7,342 bases of DNA from an archaeon (lineage in GTDB: Archaea; Iainarchaeota; Iainarchaeia; Iainarchaeales; CSSED10-239): NCBI GenBank assembly GCA_035390665.1, contig DAOOUC010000015.1, positions 1 through 7,342 on the forward strand. Direction: 5' to 3'. Of this stretch, positions 1-4,900 are shown piece by piece. The translations under genes and the position numbers were made by a program. Below the pieces are notes generated by a model. It saw only the letters and a program-made list of their open reading frames with translations, made no database searches and was not told the origin of the DNA. Within the stretch, counting starts at the first letter, position 1. Each line of letters opens with the position of its first letter.

Positions 1-705
1 CAGACATCAACTTATGTTTATGACACAGGTGCAGCTCCAGAAAATTTAATTGTTGGTTTTATATTTCAAGGAATAGATAGTAATGCAACAATAGATAATG
101 ATCAAAATCTAGTAAGTATAAGAATACCATTTGGAATAAATAGAGCAAATTTAATTCCAATAATTGAAGTAGAAGAAGGTTGTAGTATATATCCAGAAAG
201 TGGTATTTCTCAAAATTTTAATGTGCCTGTAACTTATACAGTAAGTTCAATAACAGGGCAAAGACTTTATACAGTTATAGTAACAAACAATCCACGCGTA
301 TTTGCTCCAATTGCAAGTGTTTCTGGAGGCAATTATAATTTACCAATAACTGTTGAGTTATCAACTCAAACACCTGGAGCAATAATTAAGTACACAACAA
401 ATGGTTCTTTTCCAACATTATCTAGTAATACTTATAATAATCCAATAACAATCAATTCTACAACGATTCTAAAAGCAAAAACTTACCTTTATGTTGGTCC
501 ACTATTGAGTTCAAGTAATTCTTCAAGAGGAAACTCTAGTCCAAAGAACATACAAAATATAGTCCCTGCCCCTTTGGTGTGGTTAAGCAGTAGTGTGTTA
601 ACAGAAGAATATATTTTTCCAAGAAAAACACCAAGTAAAAACAAACACGAAGTAATAACAAAAGAAAAAGAAAAAAAGGAGTTCACACAGAACAGTGAAA
701 AGTAA
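1..705 (+). CDS. Secreted/cell-surface multi-domain protein, C-terminal 234 aa (5' end lies upstream of the window)
   Basis: Frame 1 has no stop from nt 1 to the TAA at 703-705, so the GTG at 223 used by the ORF track is not a required start. Translation of 1-222 reads QTSTYVYDTGAAPENLIVGFIFQGIDSNATIDNDQNLVSIRIPFGINRANLIPIIEVEEGCSIYPESGISQNFN and continues VPVTYTVSSITGQRLYTVIVT. This follows the 'IxF..ID...IxVxVPxG....LxP.I.V..G..I.P.SG...F..PVxYTV....G....YTVxV' pattern typical of beta-sandwich modules in cell-surface proteins. Nt 325-618 (GGNYNLPITVELSTQTPGAIIKYTTNGSFPTLSSNTYNNPITINSTTILKAKTY...SSSVLTEEYIF) matches my recollection of the chitobiase/beta-hexosaminidase C-terminal (Fn3-associated) domain consensus. 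The protein ends in a Lys/Glu-rich tail with no TM segment. Confidence 0.8.
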   Translation, partial: QTSTYVYDTGAAPENLIVGFIFQGIDSNATIDNDQNLVSIRIPFGINRANLIPIIEVEEGCSIYPESGISQNFNVPVTYTVSSITGQRLYTVIVTNNPRVFAPIASVSGGNYNLPITVELSTQTPGAIIKYTTNGSFPTLSSNTYNNPITINSTTILKAKTYLYVGPLLSSSNSSRGNSSPKNIQNIVPAPLVWLSSSVLTEEYIFPRKTPSKNKHEVITKEKEKKEFTQNSEK

Positions 706-713
706 CTGTTGTA

Positions 714-721
714 TTTATAAA
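714..721 (+). promoter_or_regulatory. Candidate archaeal TATA box (TTTATAAA) for the 773-4899 gene cluster
   Basis: TTTATAAA lies in the 67-bp spacer, about 52 nt upstream of ATG 773. A start about 25 nt downstream would leave a short leader containing the AGGTG Shine-Dalgarno at 761-765. AT-rich background makes chance matches likely. Confidence 0.3.
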
Positions 722-772
722 GATTATGATGTATAATTTTCAATAAATAGTATTTTTAAAAGGTGCAAATAG

Positions 773-874
773 ATGTTAACTTCAAAAAAAAAAGGACAGA
801 TTTCTGTTGAAGCTTTAATAATTGTTGGAGTTTTAGTTATTGGAGGAATAATATTTGCGTCTGTTTTTTTAGGA
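773..874 (+). other. Class III (prepilin-type) signal peptide plus hydrophobic pilin N-terminal helix; predicted prepilin-peptidase cleavage between Gly8 and Gln9 (nt 796/797)
   Basis: KKKG|QISVEALII followed by an uninterrupted hydrophobic stretch to Gly34. Compare the SKKGQI(S/A)xE N-termini of EppA-processed Methanococcus pilins (from memory). Confidence 0.75.
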
Positions 875-2458
875 AATATTAATAATCAAACAAAGAAAGC
901 AAACGAATTATCAGGAATTACTGATGATTTTATGAATGATTTAGAGGGATGGAATACTCCAGGTCCAGGTCCTGGTCCAGGAGGAAGTAATTGTGGCAAT
1001 CACGTTTGTGAAAACCCCCCAGAGAATCAAAGTAATTGTTCTGATTGTGAAATACCATCTGATGGTTGTAATGATAATGGCTATTGTGAACCGGAATTAG
1101 GAGAAACTGCTGCAAATTGTGATGATTGTCAAAGTCCAACATTTAGTAATTTTGTTATAAGTAAATATGCACCAACAGGAGATTCCCCAGTTAATTCTAA
1201 ATTTAGTTTAAAAGCAGAAATAACGTCTAGTTATCCTTCTGTAGAAATTTATGATATTAAATTAACTAAATTTGATCCAATTTCATATTCTTGGAGTAAT
1301 TCAAATAAATGTGCAATAAAAGGAACGGCTCCAGATGCAGGAACAGGAATATATCCAGGGACATTATTAATGACAATAGAAGATGTTTCTTTAAAAAATC
1401 ACGGAAAAATTATTGATGAAATCAGTTGTAGTGAAGAAGGAGAATACAGATTTTCAGCATTGGCTAGACCAAAAGGAGTTACAGGAGTGCCTTCTTTATC
1501 AGATGATGAAGCAAAAATTATAACATCAGCACCAGTGGGATGCGGAAATCCAGCAATTTGTGAATCTGGAGAAACCTGTGCAACATGTACAGAATGTTGT
1601 ACCATACCAGGAACATCTTTTGGAGTTTTAATTTCTTCTCCAACAGATCAAAAATATTATAATAATACAGATAATATTAATTTTATTGCAATAACAGCAC
1701 CAGAATTAAAACCTGGAGAAACCGATAGTTGTGTATGGTATGTTAATGAAAAAATAGAGATTCCTTTAACCGGGCAACAAAATAGTTGTTCATTATCACA
1801 AGTTTCTTTATCAGATACTTCTGTCTTTTCAGAAGGATTAAATAAAATTACAGTATATGCTCAAAGAAGTACAACTGCAGGAAAAAAATTAGAAGCTAAC
1901 GCAAGTGTAGGAATATATATCTTAAAACCAATAAATCCAGGAACATTATATTTATTAACACCAAGAAATTTGCTTGTTGGAGAAAATTTTAATTTAATGG
2001 TTTATGGAACAAATCAAGGATCAGTTAATGCCCCAAGAAATATAAATAATTTTACATTTACAGGAAATAAATGTGTAGTAACTTCTTCAACACCAACTTG
2101 TGGAACAACAACAGTAAATGGAACTGATGTTTACTATTGTGATTATCCCGCAATTTGCTCACAGCCAGCATATTCACAAACAGGAGTACATAATCCTACA
2201 GAAATTACAGCCAGTATGACAGGCACAACAGAAACAGCTAAATTTTATTCAGAATATGATTTGTGGTTTGATTTTGGAAATTGTAGTGTGACTGCTACAA
2301 GTTATGGAAAAATGCATGCATGTTTATCATCCTCTAGTGGAATGGGATATAATAGCGATTATTGGAATAATTCTAGTGGATTATTAAAAGCAAATGTGGA
2401 TGTTTCATTTAATATGACAAAAAATATTAATGGTACTTTAAAAGTATATGTGGAATAA
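773..2458 (+). CDS. Large Cys-rich type IV pilin-like (class III signal peptide) surface protein, putative pilus-associated adhesin
   Basis: The ORF is 561 aa. ATG 773 is preceded by AGGTG (761-765) with a 7-nt spacer. The N-terminus MLTSKKKG|QISVEALIIVGVLVIGGIIFASVFLG has a basic n-region, Gly at -1, Gln +1, Ser +3, Glu +5 and about 25 hydrophobic residues. This fits the QxSxExxx(L/I) archaeal class III signal peptide motif (DUF361-type pilins; Szabo et al. 2007). A (PG)4 linker follows, then three short Cys modules, then beta-rich S/T/N-rich sequence with many N-x-S/T sequons. There are 24 Cys in total and no enzymatic motif. Confidence 0.88.
   Translation: MLTSKKKGQISVEALIIVGVLVIGGIIFASVFLGNINNQTKKANELSGITDDFMNDLEGWNTPGPGPGPGGSNCGNHVCENPPENQSNCSDCEIPSDGCNDNGYCEPELGETAANCDDCQSPTFSNFVISKYAPTGDSPVNSKFSLKAEITSSYPSVEIYDIKLTKFDPISYSWSNSNKCAIKGTAPDAGTGIYPGTLLMTIEDVSLKNHGKIIDEISCSEEGEYRFSALARPKGVTGVPSLSDDEAKIITSAPVGCGNPAICESGETCATCTECCTIPGTSFGVLISSPTDQKYYNNTDNINFIAITAPELKPGETDSCVWYVNEKIEIPLTGQQNSCSLSQVSLSDTSVFSEGLNKITVYAQRSTTAGKKLEANASVGIYILKPINPGTLYLLTPRNLLVGENFNLMVYGTNQGSVNAPRNINNFTFTGNKCVVTSSTPTCGTTTVNGTDVYYCDYPAICSQPAYSQTGVHNPTEITASMTGTTETAKFYSEYDLWFDFGNCSVTATSYGKMHACLSSSSGMGYNSDYWNNSSGLLKANVDVSFNMTKNINGTLKVYVE
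959..985 (+). repeat. Hexanucleotide microsatellite CCAGGT CCAGGT CCTGGT CCAGGA GGA encoding the PGPGPGPGG linker
   Basis: Direct reading of 959-985. It is a locally G+C-rich patch containing four CCWGG sites, placed immediately after the pilin-like N-terminal segment. Confidence 0.9.
992..1129 (+). other. Two tandem 4-Cys mini-modules (C-x4/5-C-E-x8/9-C-x2-C)
   Basis: The two modules read CGNHVCENPPENQSNCSDC (C74,C79,C89,C92) and CNDNGYCEPELGETAANCDDC (C99,C105,C116,C119). Both are acidic, with the same Cys spacing pattern. Confidence 0.8.
1541..1600 (+). other. Third, related Cys module (6 Cys)
   Basis: CGNPAICESGETCATCTECC (C257,C263,C269,C272,C275,C276) shares the CGN-x2/3-C-E start and the C-x2-C end with modules I and II. 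It separates two beta-rich regions. Confidence 0.7.
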
Positions 2459-2483: not shown

Positions 2484-2558
2484 ATGAATAAAATAAATTT
2501 GTCAAAGATTTTTTTAATATTAGCGATAGCTATTATTTCATTAAATTTAGTATTTGCA
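2484..2558 (+). other. Sec-type signal peptide (predicted cleavage after VFA, residue 25)
   Basis: MNKINLSKIFLILAIAIISLNLVFA|GS has a basic n-region (K3, K8), a 15-aa hydrophobic core and small residues at -1/-3. There is no Cys lipobox and no G|Q prepilin motif. Confidence 0.7.
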
Positions 2559-4559
2559 GGAAGTATGGCTAAACGTTATAGAATAAGTGGTGATTTAATA
2601 ATTAGTAACAACCTAGATTATGCTTGTCAAAATGGAGGAGATTGGACTTCTGGATCAACTATAGAAGAGAATGAATATGAGAGCGGCACAGGGATAGAAT
2701 TATCTAATGTTAAATTAAATGAGTTTTTTGACAAATTATTTTTTGTCGCGACTCCTGCATCCACATGTAGTTTAGAAATTTGGTCTCCATCTGGAGTAAA
2801 GGTTTATGAAAGATCAGGATTAAATGCAAATGCTATAAAAACAGGTTTAAATGAAGGAATTGTTTTACAAAATGTTGTTGTGGACACAAATTCAACTAAT
2901 ATAACCTTAAATTTTGCTGTAAAAATTAAACATGCAACAGCAGGATATTTATTAGAAACAACAGTAAAAGTACCAAATATTAATAATCAATTATTCATTA
3001 ATGCAGATAATGTAATTGCTACAATAAGTGAAACAGAAAGTGGATTTGATGCAGGCGCAAAACCTGTTTTAATGTTAGAAAAAAGAGAGAATGATGGGCA
3101 GTTTTATTATTTGCCTGTTTGGAGAAGAATAAATACCTATAATATTGCATCTGGGGGAGTAATTCCACAAAATGATTTATCAATTGTTGATAGAAATATG
3201 ACCGGGAAAGATAGTTGGGTTTTATCATGGGATGCCGGTGCAGGTAAAATGAAATGGACAAATGAGATTACAACAAGCATTATTAAAGATGGCACACTAT
3301 TACCTCAAGATTTTAATCCAAATGCAGTTTTTTCAAAAATTGGGGGTACAGTAGTTACTGAGACCGTAGGATCATTTATAACAGGTAGTAATAAATATTT
3401 AAAATTTACACACGACGGAATAGATTATTATTTAAAATTAGAACAAAAGCCAGCTACAGCTAGTTCAATGGAAGTAGGAAGTAATGGTTCTGTAATTGCG
3501 GGTAATACTTATACTAGGACTGCACAAATTAATGCAGTTACTGGTTTAACTTGGGGATTTCCATCAGGAATTACAATCCAATCAGGGCAAGGAACAGCGA
3601 CAGCTACATTTTTAGCCACAGGAATAGGCGCAAAAACAATTACTTTAAATGGGACAACAAATACAGGTTCGCCAATATCTGATTCTTTTACTTTAAATGT
3701 TTCAGACTCAACAAATTTAGAGGTTGGTGGCGACATGACTGTTTCCTTTTCAAGTGGTAGTAGTAATAGTTTTGAAAGAGAAATTGTAGCAACTGGAGTA
3801 AATCAAAGTACAATTAATTGGGAAGTTCTTCCTTCAGGAACAGGAGTTACAATTAATGATGTGTCTCCTGCATCTAATTTAAAAAAGAGAATTACAGTAT
3901 CAACTTACGGAACACGCACAATAAAAATTACTGGAATTTCAGTCTATAGCGGACAAGTTGTAACAGATTCATTTATTTTAACTGCGGCTCAATCTGGAGG
4001 AAGTAATCCACCACCAGGCCCACCAGGAGGAGGAATAAATTGTTTCAAGTCAGGAACACCAGTTTTAACATCTACAGGATATAAACCAATAGAATCAATA
4101 AAACAAGGAGATTTAGTTTATTCTTTAGATGAAAAAACAAATAAAATTGTTTTAACAAAAGTAAATAAATTATTAGTGCATGATACAATATCTTTTGCTC
4201 CAACAATTAAGTTAAAATTAAATAATAATGTAGAATTAATTGTTACAACAAACCATGCATTTTATGATCCTATAGCCAAAGGATATAAGCAATTAAGATT
4301 CTTTACAATAGGAGATAAACTGTTGTATTATAATGGAACAAAAAATACAGAAGTAGAAATCACAAGTATGGAAAAACAAGATGATTTATTAGTTTCATAT
4401 AATTTATCATTAGAATATCCAAATAATTATTTCGTAAATGGTATATTAGTTCATAATGATATAAAAGGTGGAGCTGATATTAATCCAACACCTGGCGGTT
4501 GTTATCAAGAAGGCCCTGGAGGGGTATTGTATTGGTACGATAGTTGTCAAGGAATATAA
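2484..4559 (+). CDS. Secreted surface protein with tandem Ig-like modules and a C-terminal Hint (intein-like) autoprocessing domain
   Basis: The ORF is 691 aa and starts 25 nt after the previous stop, with GGGAG/AAGGA purine-rich SD-like sequence upstream. It has an N-terminal Sec-type signal peptide, an unassigned region of about 300 aa, two homologous modules of about 85-95 aa, the linker GGSNPPPGPPGGG, a Hint domain (residues 520-658) and a 33-aa tail. No TM segment or known anchor motif follows the signal peptide. Confidence 0.92.
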   Translation: MNKINLSKIFLILAIAIISLNLVFAGSMAKRYRISGDLIISNNLDYACQNGGDWTSGSTIEENEYESGTGIELSNVKLNEFFDKLFFVATPASTCSLEIWSPSGVKVYERSGLNANAIKTGLNEGIVLQNVVVDTNSTNITLNFAVKIKHATAGYLLETTVKVPNINNQLFINADNVIATISETESGFDAGAKPVLMLEKRENDGQFYYLPVWRRINTYNIASGGVIPQNDLSIVDRNMTGKDSWVLSWDAGAGKMKWTNEITTSIIKDGTLLPQDFNPNAVFSKIGGTVVTETVGSFITGSNKYLKFTHDGIDYYLKLEQKPATASSMEVGSNGSVIAGNTYTRTAQINAVTGLTWGFPSGITIQSGQGTATATFLATGIGAKTITLNGTTNTGSPISDSFTLNVSDSTNLEVGGDMTVSFSSGSSNSFEREIVATGVNQSTINWEVLPSGTGVTINDVSPASNLKKRITVSTYGTRTIKITGISVYSGQVVTDSFILTAAQSGGSNPPPGPPGGGINCFKSGTPVLTSTGYKPIESIKQGDLVYSLDEKTNKIVLTKVNKLLVHDTISFAPTIKLKLNNNVELIVTTNHAFYDPIAKGYKQLRFFTIGDKLLYYNGTKNTEVEITSMEKQDDLLVSYNLSLEYPNNYFVNGILVHNDIKGGADINPTPGGCYQEGPGGVLYWYDSCQGI
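3462..3986 (+). repeat. Two tandem, divergent Ig-like (Big_2-like) modules at protein level (about residues 327-407 and 408-501)
   Basis: The two modules align by eye: MEVG/LEVG; LTWGFPSGITIQSG versus INWEVLPSGTGVTINDV; ATFLATGIGAKTITLNGTTNTGSPISDSFTLNV versus RITVSTYGTRTIKITGISVYSGQVVTDSFILTA. The nucleotide sequences are not repeated, so the duplication is ancient. Confidence 0.65.
4041..4457 (+). other. Hint domain (mini-intein-sized, BIL / pre-toxin-HINT-like), residues Cys520-Asn658
   Basis: Block A is CFKSGTPVLTSTGYKPIESIKQGDLV. Block B is LIVTTNHAF (T588-x-x-H591). Block F is DLLVSYNLSLEYPNNYFVNG. Block G is ILVHN (H657-N658). The +1 residue is Asp659, which is not Cys/Ser/Thr. At 139 aa there is no room for a homing-endonuclease insert. 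Confidence 0.85.
4458..4556 (+). other. 33-aa C-terminal tail downstream of the Hint domain (potentially released peptide)
   Basis: DIKGGADINPTPGGCYQEGPGGVLYWYDSCQGI is Gly/Pro-rich, has two Cys (C673, C688; C-x14-C) and an aromatic patch, VLYWY. Confidence 0.6.
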
Positions 4560-4566
4560 AATGAAA

Positions 4567-4583
4567 TTTCTTTTTTTCTTTTT
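4567..4583 (+). terminator. Oligo-T tract (TTTCTTTTTTTCTTTTT), possible partial archaeal terminator/attenuator between the Hint gene and the small gene
   Basis: There is a run of seven T (4571-4577) plus five T (4579-4583), starting 8 nt after the stop codon. Archaeal termination commonly occurs at oligo-T. However, the next gene starts only 23 nt later with a strong SD, so read-through is likely. Confidence 0.3.
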
Positions 4584-4605
4584 ATATATATAGGAGGGAG
4601 ATATT

Positions 4606-4899
4606 GTGAAAAATGATAATAAAACAAAAATTTTGTATCTGACATTAGGAATTATAATTGGTGTAGCTTTAACTATGCTTTTTCAAATTACAATATTAGG
4701 AAATGCGAATAAGTCAATAGTAAAAAAAGTAAATACAATTAATTATTATGGATTAGCGGAAGATTGTTTAAATGGTGGAGGAACCGCAATTACAAATCCA
4801 AATGCGCATTATGGAGATGACGGAGTAACATATTATCCAAATGGGTCATTTACATGCAGCGTAAATGGAACTTCCACTACTGTTCCATTACCAGTATAA
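4606..4899 (+). CDS. Small N-terminally membrane-anchored extracytoplasmic protein, two Cys, unknown function
   Basis: The ORF is 97 aa. GTG 4606 is preceded by a strong SD, AGGAGGGAG (4592-4600). MKNDNKTK is followed by the hydrophobic segment ILYLTLGIIIGVALTMLFQITILG (signal anchor; no G|Q/A prepilin site and no AxA site). A 65-aa Gly/Asn/Thr-rich ectodomain follows, with C54 and C84. Confidence 0.7.
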   Translation: MKNDNKTKILYLTLGIIIGVALTMLFQITILGNANKSIVKKVNTINYYGLAEDCLNGGGTAITNPNAHYGDDGVTYYPNGSFTCSVNGTSTTVPLPV

Positions 4900-4900
4900 A

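Follow-up and report, generated by a model that had tools for sequence, protein, structure and literature searches.

The gene and the domains of its product

The window considered here, 7,342 nucleotides at the start of contig C15 (DAOOUC010000015.1; C15:1-7342) of an archaeal genome assembled to 848 kb in 21 contigs at 86% completeness, carries at 773-2458 on the forward strand an open reading frame (ORF) that runs from ATG to TAA. Its predicted product of 561 residues (P0001), which we read as a modular surface protein with a class III signal, is the subject of this work. A TATA-like box, TTTATAAA, lies at 713-720 (+), about 55 nt 5' of the ATG, and might be a promoter when judged by the general archaeal TATA consensus; a Shine-Dalgarno-like GGTG, likewise read from the sequence, precedes the start codon at 761-764 (+). 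The G+C content of the gene region is 30%, the same as in the remaining window. The ribosomal proteins of the genome are archaeal, the nearest named L3 being that of 'Candidatus Iainarchaeum' at 45% identity, followed by those of other DPANN lineages, and sampled genomes of the same order measure 0.5-1.5 Mb.

Twenty-four cysteines make up 4.3% of the residues, a content that ranks 7th among the 643 ORFs of at least 150 residues in the genome, where the mean is 1.08%. They occupy positions 74, 79, 89, 92, 99, 105, 116, 119, 180, 219, 257, 263, 269, 272, 275, 276, 320, 339, 434, 443, 456, 462, 504 and 517. The length, the cysteine count, the (PG)4 linker and the three cysteine modules described in an earlier reading of this DNA by itself (the sequence-only reading) were all recovered on counting. 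The 'many' N-x-S/T sequons of that reading were not borne out; the 12 present lie within the expectation from shuffled sequences (8.9 ± 2.6, P = 0.16), and heavy glycosylation was rejected as a conclusion to be drawn from them. Large archaeal proteins with class III signals are established, for example bindosome substrate-binding proteins and FlaFind positives. The epithet 'giant' is fair only relative to pilins; other class III proteins encoded in the same genome measure 582, 991 and 1324 residues. The implied rarity was overstated as well, since large class III proteins are frequent here and have been catalogued from both archaea and bacteria (PMC13705601, PMC8179133, PMC4858521).

We collected 13 full-length or partial orthologues, all from metagenomes, of which 11 are in the alignment used here. 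An AlphaFold 2 (AF2) model made from the 11-sequence alignment has a mean predicted local distance difference test score (pLDDT) of 67. All of the following features are on the forward strand. The model has a helix over residues 12-54 at a pLDDT of 35-64, a length close to the ~50 residues of alpha1 in type IV pilins; the amphipathic continuation of this helix, which we call alpha1-C (residues 35-58; 875-946), is placed by the AF2 helix and by likeness to short pilins. It is followed by a Pro/Gly linker, TPGPGPGPGG (residues 59-73; 947-991; pLDDT ~30), with the (PG)4 repeat at residues 62-71, and by Cys modules 1 and 2 (residues 74-120; 992-1132), of the forms C-x4-C-x9-C-x2-C and C-x5-C-x10-C-x2-C. 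The model is disordered or of low confidence over the linker and these two modules (residues 55-120). Three cysteine clusters are seen, at residues 74-92, 99-119 and 257-276, and Cys79, 89, 92, 99, 105, 116 and 119 are kept in 9-11 of the 11 orthologues.

Where the sequence-only reading had spoken of beta-rich regions, the model gives three beta-sandwich domains. D1, the first and Ig-like (residues 121-252; 1133-1528), is modelled over 124-251 at a pLDDT of ~85 and holds the invariant pair Cys180-Cys219. D2, also Ig-like (residues 282-386; 1616-1930), is modelled over 284-384 at 74-88 with the invariant pair Cys320-Cys339, and D3 (residues 387-503; 1931-2281) over 393-503 at 73-91 with the invariant pair Cys434-Cys462. 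Cys443 and Cys456 are either both present (in 6 of the 11 orthologues) or both absent, the pattern that would be expected of a disulfide pair. Between D1 and D2 lies Cys module 3 with its six cysteines (residues 253-281; 1529-1615), which seems to be an optional insert and is missing as a unit in two orthologues, P0004 and P0012. A C-terminal Cys-loop module (residues 504-561 plus the stop codon; 2282-2458), with Cys504-Cys517 and ending in ...GxLKxYxE, closes the protein; it is not confidently modelled (pLDDT 30-46) and is conserved in 23 relatives.

Searches of the ectodomain found no Pfam or NCBIfam family beyond the N-terminal signal, and searches of PDB sequences with the profile and with residues 1-62 returned insignificant matches only. 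Foldseek against the PDB gave only generic tandem Ig-like arrays at template-modelling (TM) scores of 0.11-0.20, among them adhesins (giant ones too), cadherins, S-layer proteins and complement MG domains, and because the matches are so generic we rejected any reading of ligand or function from the fold search. Parts of the protein recur in other class III proteins: D1 in ones having DUF285, GLUG or CHB_HEX_C tails, D1 and the C-terminal module in ones with different middles or ends, and the N-terminal module at the head of proteins with DUF285, GLUG and CHB_HEX_C domains. Such a union of an N-terminal pilin module, a linker and domains foreign to type IV pili (T4P) is a modular pilin architecture in the sense of Raynaud et al. 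(2021).

The N-terminal signal and the filament machinery

The N-terminus reads MLTSKKKG↓QISVEALIIVGVLVIGGIIFASVFLG, the arrow marking the predicted site of cleavage by a prepilin peptidase after Gly8. The leader peptide (M1-G8, MLTSKKKG; 773-796) owes its lysines to a run of ten A at 784-793. The segment behind it, alpha1-N (Q9-G34; 797-874), is delimited by conservation and by the Pfam family Class_IIIsignal (PF04021, formerly DUF361); it begins with Gln at +1, Ser at +3 and Glu at +5 and continues as a hydrophobic helix of 20 residues, residues 14-33 being hydrophobic or small at 20 of 20 positions. The profile matched by this N-terminus is Class_IIIsignal itself and not a generic anchor, and the alignment takes in all 27 profile positions (residues 6-32); its score of 14.7 bits (E = 0.031) falls below the gathering cut-off of 23.7 bits. 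In a six-frame search of the genome the match of this gene reached 19.6 bits, and eight class III matches exceeded the Pfam threshold. The QxSxExxxL motif named in the sequence-only reading fits at its Q, S and E and is approximate at its end, residue +9 being Ile and not Leu.

The context of the motif says more than the score. Among the 11 aligned orthologues, 33-91% identical overall, K5, Q9, S11, E13, A14 and L15 are invariant and residue -1 is only ever G or A (11/11), with Lys at -2 invariant or nearly so; conservation peaks in alpha1-N, whose mean pairwise identity of 0.78 compares to 0.41-0.49 for every ectodomain segment. Seventeen ORFs of the same genome start with [KR]-G-Q-x-[SAT]-x-E and a hydrophobic helix. 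An exhaustive phmmer search, made against 1.8 billion representatives, brought up 58 relatives, of which about 45 share only residues 1 to ~60-235 and otherwise have lengths of 54-1102 residues and unrelated C-termini; nearly all of these ~45 have the K-[GA]-Q-x-S-x-E site, two having S or T at -1. In Methanococcus maripaludis the Epd pilins have an experimentally defined site, KG↓QI, KG↓QV or KG↓QL, with Glu at +5, and the Gln at +1 is required by the dedicated large prepilin peptidase EppA (PMC4371748). KKKG↓QISVE fits this type in its [KR]-[GA] leader end, Gln +1 and Glu +5. Taken alone, the PF04021 score would be merely suggestive; with the paralogues, orthologues, distant relatives and conservation considered together, we regard an EppA/Epd-type class III (prepilin) signal as well supported at the level of sequence.

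Let us consider instead that the protein has an ordinary uncleaved signal anchor, making it a type II membrane protein whose resemblance to prepilins is coincidental. The sub-threshold Class_IIIsignal score would agree with this, as would the generic character of a basic stretch followed by a hydrophobic helix. It would leave without explanation the invariance of Q+1, S+3 and E+5, with G or A at -1, across the orthologues and the ~45 distant relatives, and the identity of the site type with that of the pilins in the type IV filament (T4F) locus of this genome and of EppA substrates; moreover, a Glu five residues into a transmembrane helix is unexpected for a plain anchor. The invariant motif and the known EppA site type together make a generic anchor unlikely; we rejected the plain anchor on motif invariance and consider it highly improbable.

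The machinery for which the sequence-only reading had called is present in the genome. Three Peptidase_A24 matches above the cut-off, five T2SSE (PilB-like) ATPases and eight T2SSF matches were found, the last amounting to four split PilC-like platforms, encoded as gene pairs at C1:85.8/86.6 kb, C1:134.0/134.7 kb, C2:111.7/112.5 kb and C3:66.0/66.7 kb. One ordered Epd-like locus, at C1:83.5-92 kb, encodes an ATPase of 572 residues, platform proteins of 379 and 298 residues (both T2SSF), six KGQ-type pilins of 57-292 residues and two further class III proteins; among the KGQ-type pilins sits a 355-residue A24 peptidase with an archaeal Arc_PepC domain (C1:90102-91169). A two-gene platform is the hallmark of the archaeal T4F 'System 1' (Epd type), which has been reported from DPANN archaea, although these are said to have ordered T4F loci only rarely (PMC13705601). 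We note that four platforms, five ATPases and three peptidases in less than 1 Mb represent a heavy investment in type IV filaments, at odds with the latter statement.

Residues 1-58 of the protein resemble the 57-residue pilin encoded directly after the platform genes of the C1 locus (39.5% identity over 43 residues), and also complete short proteins of 72-88 residues in the representative library. The carrier module appears, therefore, to be a helix-only Epd-type pilin module.

Probable block exchange between strains and the genomic setting

Among the 60 sampled genomes of the order that we searched, only its own yielded the full-length protein; the N-terminal module turned up in all three of the same-family genomes searched. 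Two orthologue contigs, L036 and L038 (CAZDEU010000218.1 and CAZDEU010000191.1; 3.7 and 4.5 kb), belong to a metagenome-assembled genome labelled 'uncultured Bacteroidales bacterium'; they are probably archaeal and were placed in a bacterial bin by mistake.

Comparison of orthologues reveals a mosaic. P0003 and P0007 are 98% identical over residues 1-58, 40% over 59-120, 20% in D1, 100% in D2, 98% in D3 and 47% in the tail; P0006 and P0010 are 97% identical over 1-58, 37% over 59-120 and 21% in D1, and then 83-100% in the other segments; P0003 and P0006 are 89-92% identical in the block 59-252 and ~30% in D2-D3. D1 exists as two deep allele types only ~20-25% identical to each other, and all four combinations of the two D1-block types with the two D2-D3 types were found. 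At the DNA level, the pairs P0006/P0010 and P0003/P0007 are 97-100% identical outside a block of ~600 nt (codons ~60-265) and 20-55% identical within it, while the same block is 87-96% identical between backgrounds that are otherwise ~45% identical. The identity collapses to 23-60% at codons ~60-70, the PG microsatellite, and returns to 90-100% at codons ~252-276, which is Cys module 3, so that the linker and this module form the 5' and 3' edges of the D1 cassette; a third breakpoint lies near codon 505. The window allele itself is 53-78% identical to the nearest strains at 930-1150 (linker and Cys modules 1-2) and 90-100% elsewhere. Blocks 60-265 and ~280-505 appear to be exchanged between strains otherwise 97-100% identical, which is new here.

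All mosaic alleles come from contigs of short-read metagenomes, and assembly chimerism has to be weighed. Real recombination is the likelier explanation, since contigs as long as 46 and 93 kb carry two of the alleles and two runs yielded one allele in identical form. Silent donor cassettes of the pilS kind within the same genome were considered and rejected, as BLAST against all of its ORFs gave only the N-terminal module in paralogues; a profile search of the genome found D1 only in a 582-residue paralogue on contig C2.

We made several further observations on variation in this region. The Pro-Gly microsatellite, (CCWGGW)4, at 959-985 coincides with the 5' breakpoint of the D1 cassette. The downstream gene with a Hint domain is also a strain mosaic: in a comparison of window 3011-4900 with L088, identity is 40-68% along most of the gene and 95-100% in the flanks, and 3550-4020 is a further mosaic stretch in comparison with L089. 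The whole island behaves as a recombination hot-spot.

The gene stands in an island of surface-protein genes beside the ribosomal operon. Upstream, at 1-705 (+), is the 3' end of a gene for a Sec-secreted M6-like metalloprotease of ~985-1012 residues at full length in relatives, recognized by a Peptidase_M6 match, an HExxH motif and CHB_HEX_C/Fn3_assoc repeats. Downstream, after 25 nt, follow a 691-residue surface protein with a Sec signal, a PKD-like domain and a C-terminal Hint domain (2484-4559, +) and, as the last island gene before rpl3, a 97-residue single-pass membrane protein (4606-4899, +; from the ORF and synteny) for which the Pfam and NCBIfam searches gave no match. This order is kept in relatives down to 32% identity: a Sec-secreted protease of ~1000 residues, the gene considered here, a Hint-domain surface protein of 640-713 residues, a membrane protein of ~95 residues where present, and then rpl3-rpl4-rpl23. 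The Hint-type neighbour is syntenic in every orthologous locus; in two of them its 665-residue version had no recorded Hint match. A masked or N run at ~C15:7343-7440, right after the window end, lies inside rpl23; the window matches a 7,342-bp ENA contig, and it is the scaffold C15 that links the window to the ribosomal operon.

Assemblies of the locus that do not span the upstream protease gene (the window, L029, L030, L031, L035, L085 and L087) all end inside it, and the CHB_HEX_C/Fn3_assoc repeats probably defeat short-read assembly there. The start of contig C5, read in reverse, holds the same genes as the upstream part of the relative L033, and C5 (reversed) probably joins C15 across the unassembled protease gene. 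Further upstream, L033 has a 150-residue class III pilin with CHB_HEX_C and an S-layer-like protein of 974 residues. A few genes upstream of the island we also noticed a weak Exosortase_EpsH-like membrane protein (L033:1049-1603; C5:5400-5951, -) adjoining an S-layer-like protein of ~975 residues with a C-terminal transmembrane segment and basic tail; the two may be an archaeosortase and its substrate.

Three paralogous copies of a gene trio are present in the genome, which is likewise new here; each combines an M6-like protease with a large class III protein and one or more small class III pilins. The first includes the gene considered here with its Ig stack and extends over C5:80-957 (-) and window 1-2458, that is, across the proposed C5rev/C15 junction. 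The second, at C2:11147-16139 (+), encodes a 105-residue pilin, a 945-residue protease and the 582-residue class III protein, which has DUF285; the third, from C7:39838 to the contig end (44727) (+), encodes a 991-residue class III protein with CHB_HEX_C and GLUG domains and a protease. This repetition, the synteny of the trio in relatives and the CHB_HEX_C domain that small cassette pilins and protease have in common invite another explanation, in which the large protein works together with the adjacent metalloprotease, as partner or scaffold, and tethers it, presents it or is matured by it, and the cassette serves proteolytic attack or feeding and not adhesion. Scores of the M6 match are low (22.4 bits in L033, 16-24 bits in our genome), and the ectodomains of the large proteins are unrelated to each other (Ig stack, DUF285, GLUG), which would suit interchangeable binding heads better; we think this role quite improbable.

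One alpha1-N subclass, LIIxGxLxIGxIIF, is common to all six class III proteins encoded in the three cassettes and is seen nowhere else in the genome; three of the five besides ours are small pilins, with genes at C5:80-502, C5:505-957 and C2:11147-11464. Over +1..+30 the cassette proteins are 37-70% identical to our protein, compared to 17-30% for the rest of the class III proteins of the genome and at most 30% for the pilins of the C1 locus. The common subclass suggests that the six might co-assemble. One of the small cassette pilins, when modelled, has a helix at 15-49, a linker and a beta-sandwich (pLDDT 77), a miniature of the same plan.

Class III signals are by no means confined to these cassettes. 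The genome encodes at least three large KGQ-type and ~8 large Pilin_N-type class III proteins of 324-1329 residues, the second set having the other archaeal signal type, Pilin_N-like (KKA↓ITPIISVILL...), with genes for instance at C7:32000-35974 (-) and C1:120906-122465 (+). A Pilin_N-like protein of 1324 residues and the KGQ-type GLUG protein of 991 residues end in the same TYPYLR.NTQ.PLP tail, by which we take the two signal types to head homologous ectodomains.

A model for the protein and its place among known systems

We propose, as an account that we hold to be moderately probable, that the protein is a modular EppA-type prepilin in a T4F-type assembly, present at low abundance or at the tip, with the Ig stalk as a recombinationally diversified binding module. 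The precursor would be inserted into the membrane via its N-terminal hydrophobic helix and cut after Gly8 by an A24 prepilin peptidase, for which the 355-residue EppA-like enzyme of the C1 pilus locus is the best candidate, leaving Gln9 as the new N-terminus. Residues 9-58, which would correspond to a complete short helical Epd-type pilin, might then enter the helical core of a type IV filament or stub through a PilB/PilC-type machine, likely together with the small pilins of 96-141 residues that belong to the same alpha1 subclass and the same cassettes. Pointing outward, a stalk composed of the PG linker, two disulfide knots, three Ig-like sandwiches and the Cys-loop tail would act as the binding or recognition module, an adhesin. 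Because the protein is bulky and without a head packed on alpha1, a low-abundance or tip position seems likely. Recombinational exchange of D1 and D2-D3 blocks among strains would perhaps diversify the specificity. Entry into the filament and the adhesin role are what we infer from these features; the latter, including a part in host attachment, is drawn solely from the Ig-like architecture and the strain-level cassette swapping, of which the block exchange suggests a role in recognition or attachment. An episymbiotic lifestyle, which we assume from the genome size and the DPANN affiliation, is plausible.

Several observations weigh against this proposal. To the sub-threshold Pfam score and the short-read origin of every mosaic allele must be added that the gene lies in the surface-protein island beside the ribosomal operon and not in a T4F locus, and that the generic fold matches name no ligand. 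In the AF2 model D1 is not packed on alpha1; a low-confidence linker, residues 55-120, intervenes, so that ~65 residues follow alpha1 where canonical pilins have a packed head. The short Epd-type pilins of 57-88 residues are also headless, and for that reason the requirement for a pilin head may not apply to this system. Lastly, class III signals on so many large proteins of the genome would fit general surface display, or a bindosome-like use, equally well.

The last point leads to an alternative in which the protein is processed as a class III protein and yet never enters an extended filament, alpha1 retaining it after cleavage in the membrane or a short pseudopilus stub in the manner of the Sulfolobales bindosome, and the signal serving as a general display device. 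Besides the abundance of large class III proteins of both signal types, the distance of the gene from every T4F locus and the absence of a pilin head on alpha1 in the model would be accommodated, and class III binding proteins by which archaea functionalise T4F stubs have been described as widespread (PMC13705601). Against this alternative, the cassettes also encode small pilins with a matching alpha1 subclass, which is suggestive of co-assembly; alpha1-N is conserved far beyond what a membrane anchor demands; and neither a substrate-binding-protein domain nor an adjoining ABC transporter accompanies the gene. The narrower bindosome reading, as a substrate-binding protein, we rejected: Pfam and NCBIfam show no such family, and the neighbours are the protease, the Hint protein, the small membrane protein and ribosomal genes. 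Display without a filament we consider somewhat unlikely, and we continue with the modular prepilin as the preferred reading.

How far does this prepilin depart from known systems? The closest in the signal are the EppA substrates EpdA-E of M. maripaludis, with the same K-G↓Q-(I/V/L) site, +5 Glu and hydrophobic helix (PMC4371748), and in machinery the T4F 'System 1', whose layout of ATPase, two-gene platform, pilins and large A24 peptidase is found in this genome (PMC13705601). Residues 1-58 compare with the short helical pilins of the C1 locus; unlike Epd pilins, which are well under 150 residues, the protein reaches 561 by means of a Cys-rich Ig-like ectodomain of ~500 residues attached via the PG linker, its gene is outside the pilus locus, and its Pfam score is sub-threshold.

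Closest in design are the bacterial modular type IV pilins, such as PilB (vWA module) and PilC (lectin module) of Streptococcus sanguinis, and CofB of enterotoxigenic Escherichia coli (ETEC); more than 1,200 modular pilins in 264 architectures have been catalogued, some in ultra-small CPR bacteria (PMC8179133). There, too, a carrier pilin module, a linker and a bulky effector are combined, with a predicted position at the tip for binding (PMC8179133). The present protein differs in being archaeal with an EppA-type signal outside IPR012902, in a carrier that is seemingly the alpha-helix alone whereas the bacterial ones have a beta-sheet head, in a long linker (~15 residues plus ~47 of Cys knots) instead of a short loop, and in effector domains of no described family.

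Two archaeal groups are also comparable. The Sulfolobales bindosome proteins GlcS, AraS and TreS and the proteins with class III signal peptides (SPIII) known as 'binding proteins', 4,397 of which with diverse C-terminal architectures are on record, are likewise large, non-pilin and encoded away from the T4F core, and are processed by prepilin peptidase, with a conserved N-terminus and diverse C-termini as here (PMC13705601). In contrast to the bindosome proteins, ours has no solute-binding domain or adjacent ABC transporter, has an Ig-like stalk and not a periplasmic-binding-protein fold, and has a signal of the Gln+1/Glu+5 EppA type and not of the PibD type. Families such as arCOG05616 and arCOG07037 are large, Cys-rich proteins of archaeal T4P loci, predicted to be adhesins or minor pilins, which have several Ig folds and conserved cysteines as ours does (PMC4858521, PMC13705601); those belong to Thermoproteota, to other families and inside T4P loci, and the Pfam, NCBIfam and PDB sequence searches run here detected no sequence similarity to proteins of this kind. 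The protein is a family-level addition to the known modular-pilin design, not a new kind of system. Less ordinary are the helix-only carrier, the cassette with an M6-like protease repeated three times, and the clean exchange of domain blocks between strains.

One may go further and suppose that the three cassettes form a dedicated apparatus for recognition of host or prey, with the large proteins carried on a filament of the small cassette pilins and specificity re-assorted by homologous recombination at three joints, namely the pilin module/PG microsatellite, Cys module 3 and the C-terminal module. We consider this extension of the modular-prepilin proposal unlikely as it stands. If true, it would parallel, in an archaeon, pilin antigenic variation or the swapping of phage tail-fibre cassettes, and it would set host range.

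DPANN archaea presumably live attached to other cells, and the molecules of this contact are almost unknown. The protein described here is a concrete candidate for such a contact molecule, with a predicted processing site, a candidate peptidase, likely partner pilins and naturally domain-swapped alleles. It would also add an archaeal example with a helix-only carrier to an idea of modular pilins that came from bacteria, and it indicates that genes of this kind can occupy strain-variable islands beside core ribosomal operons.

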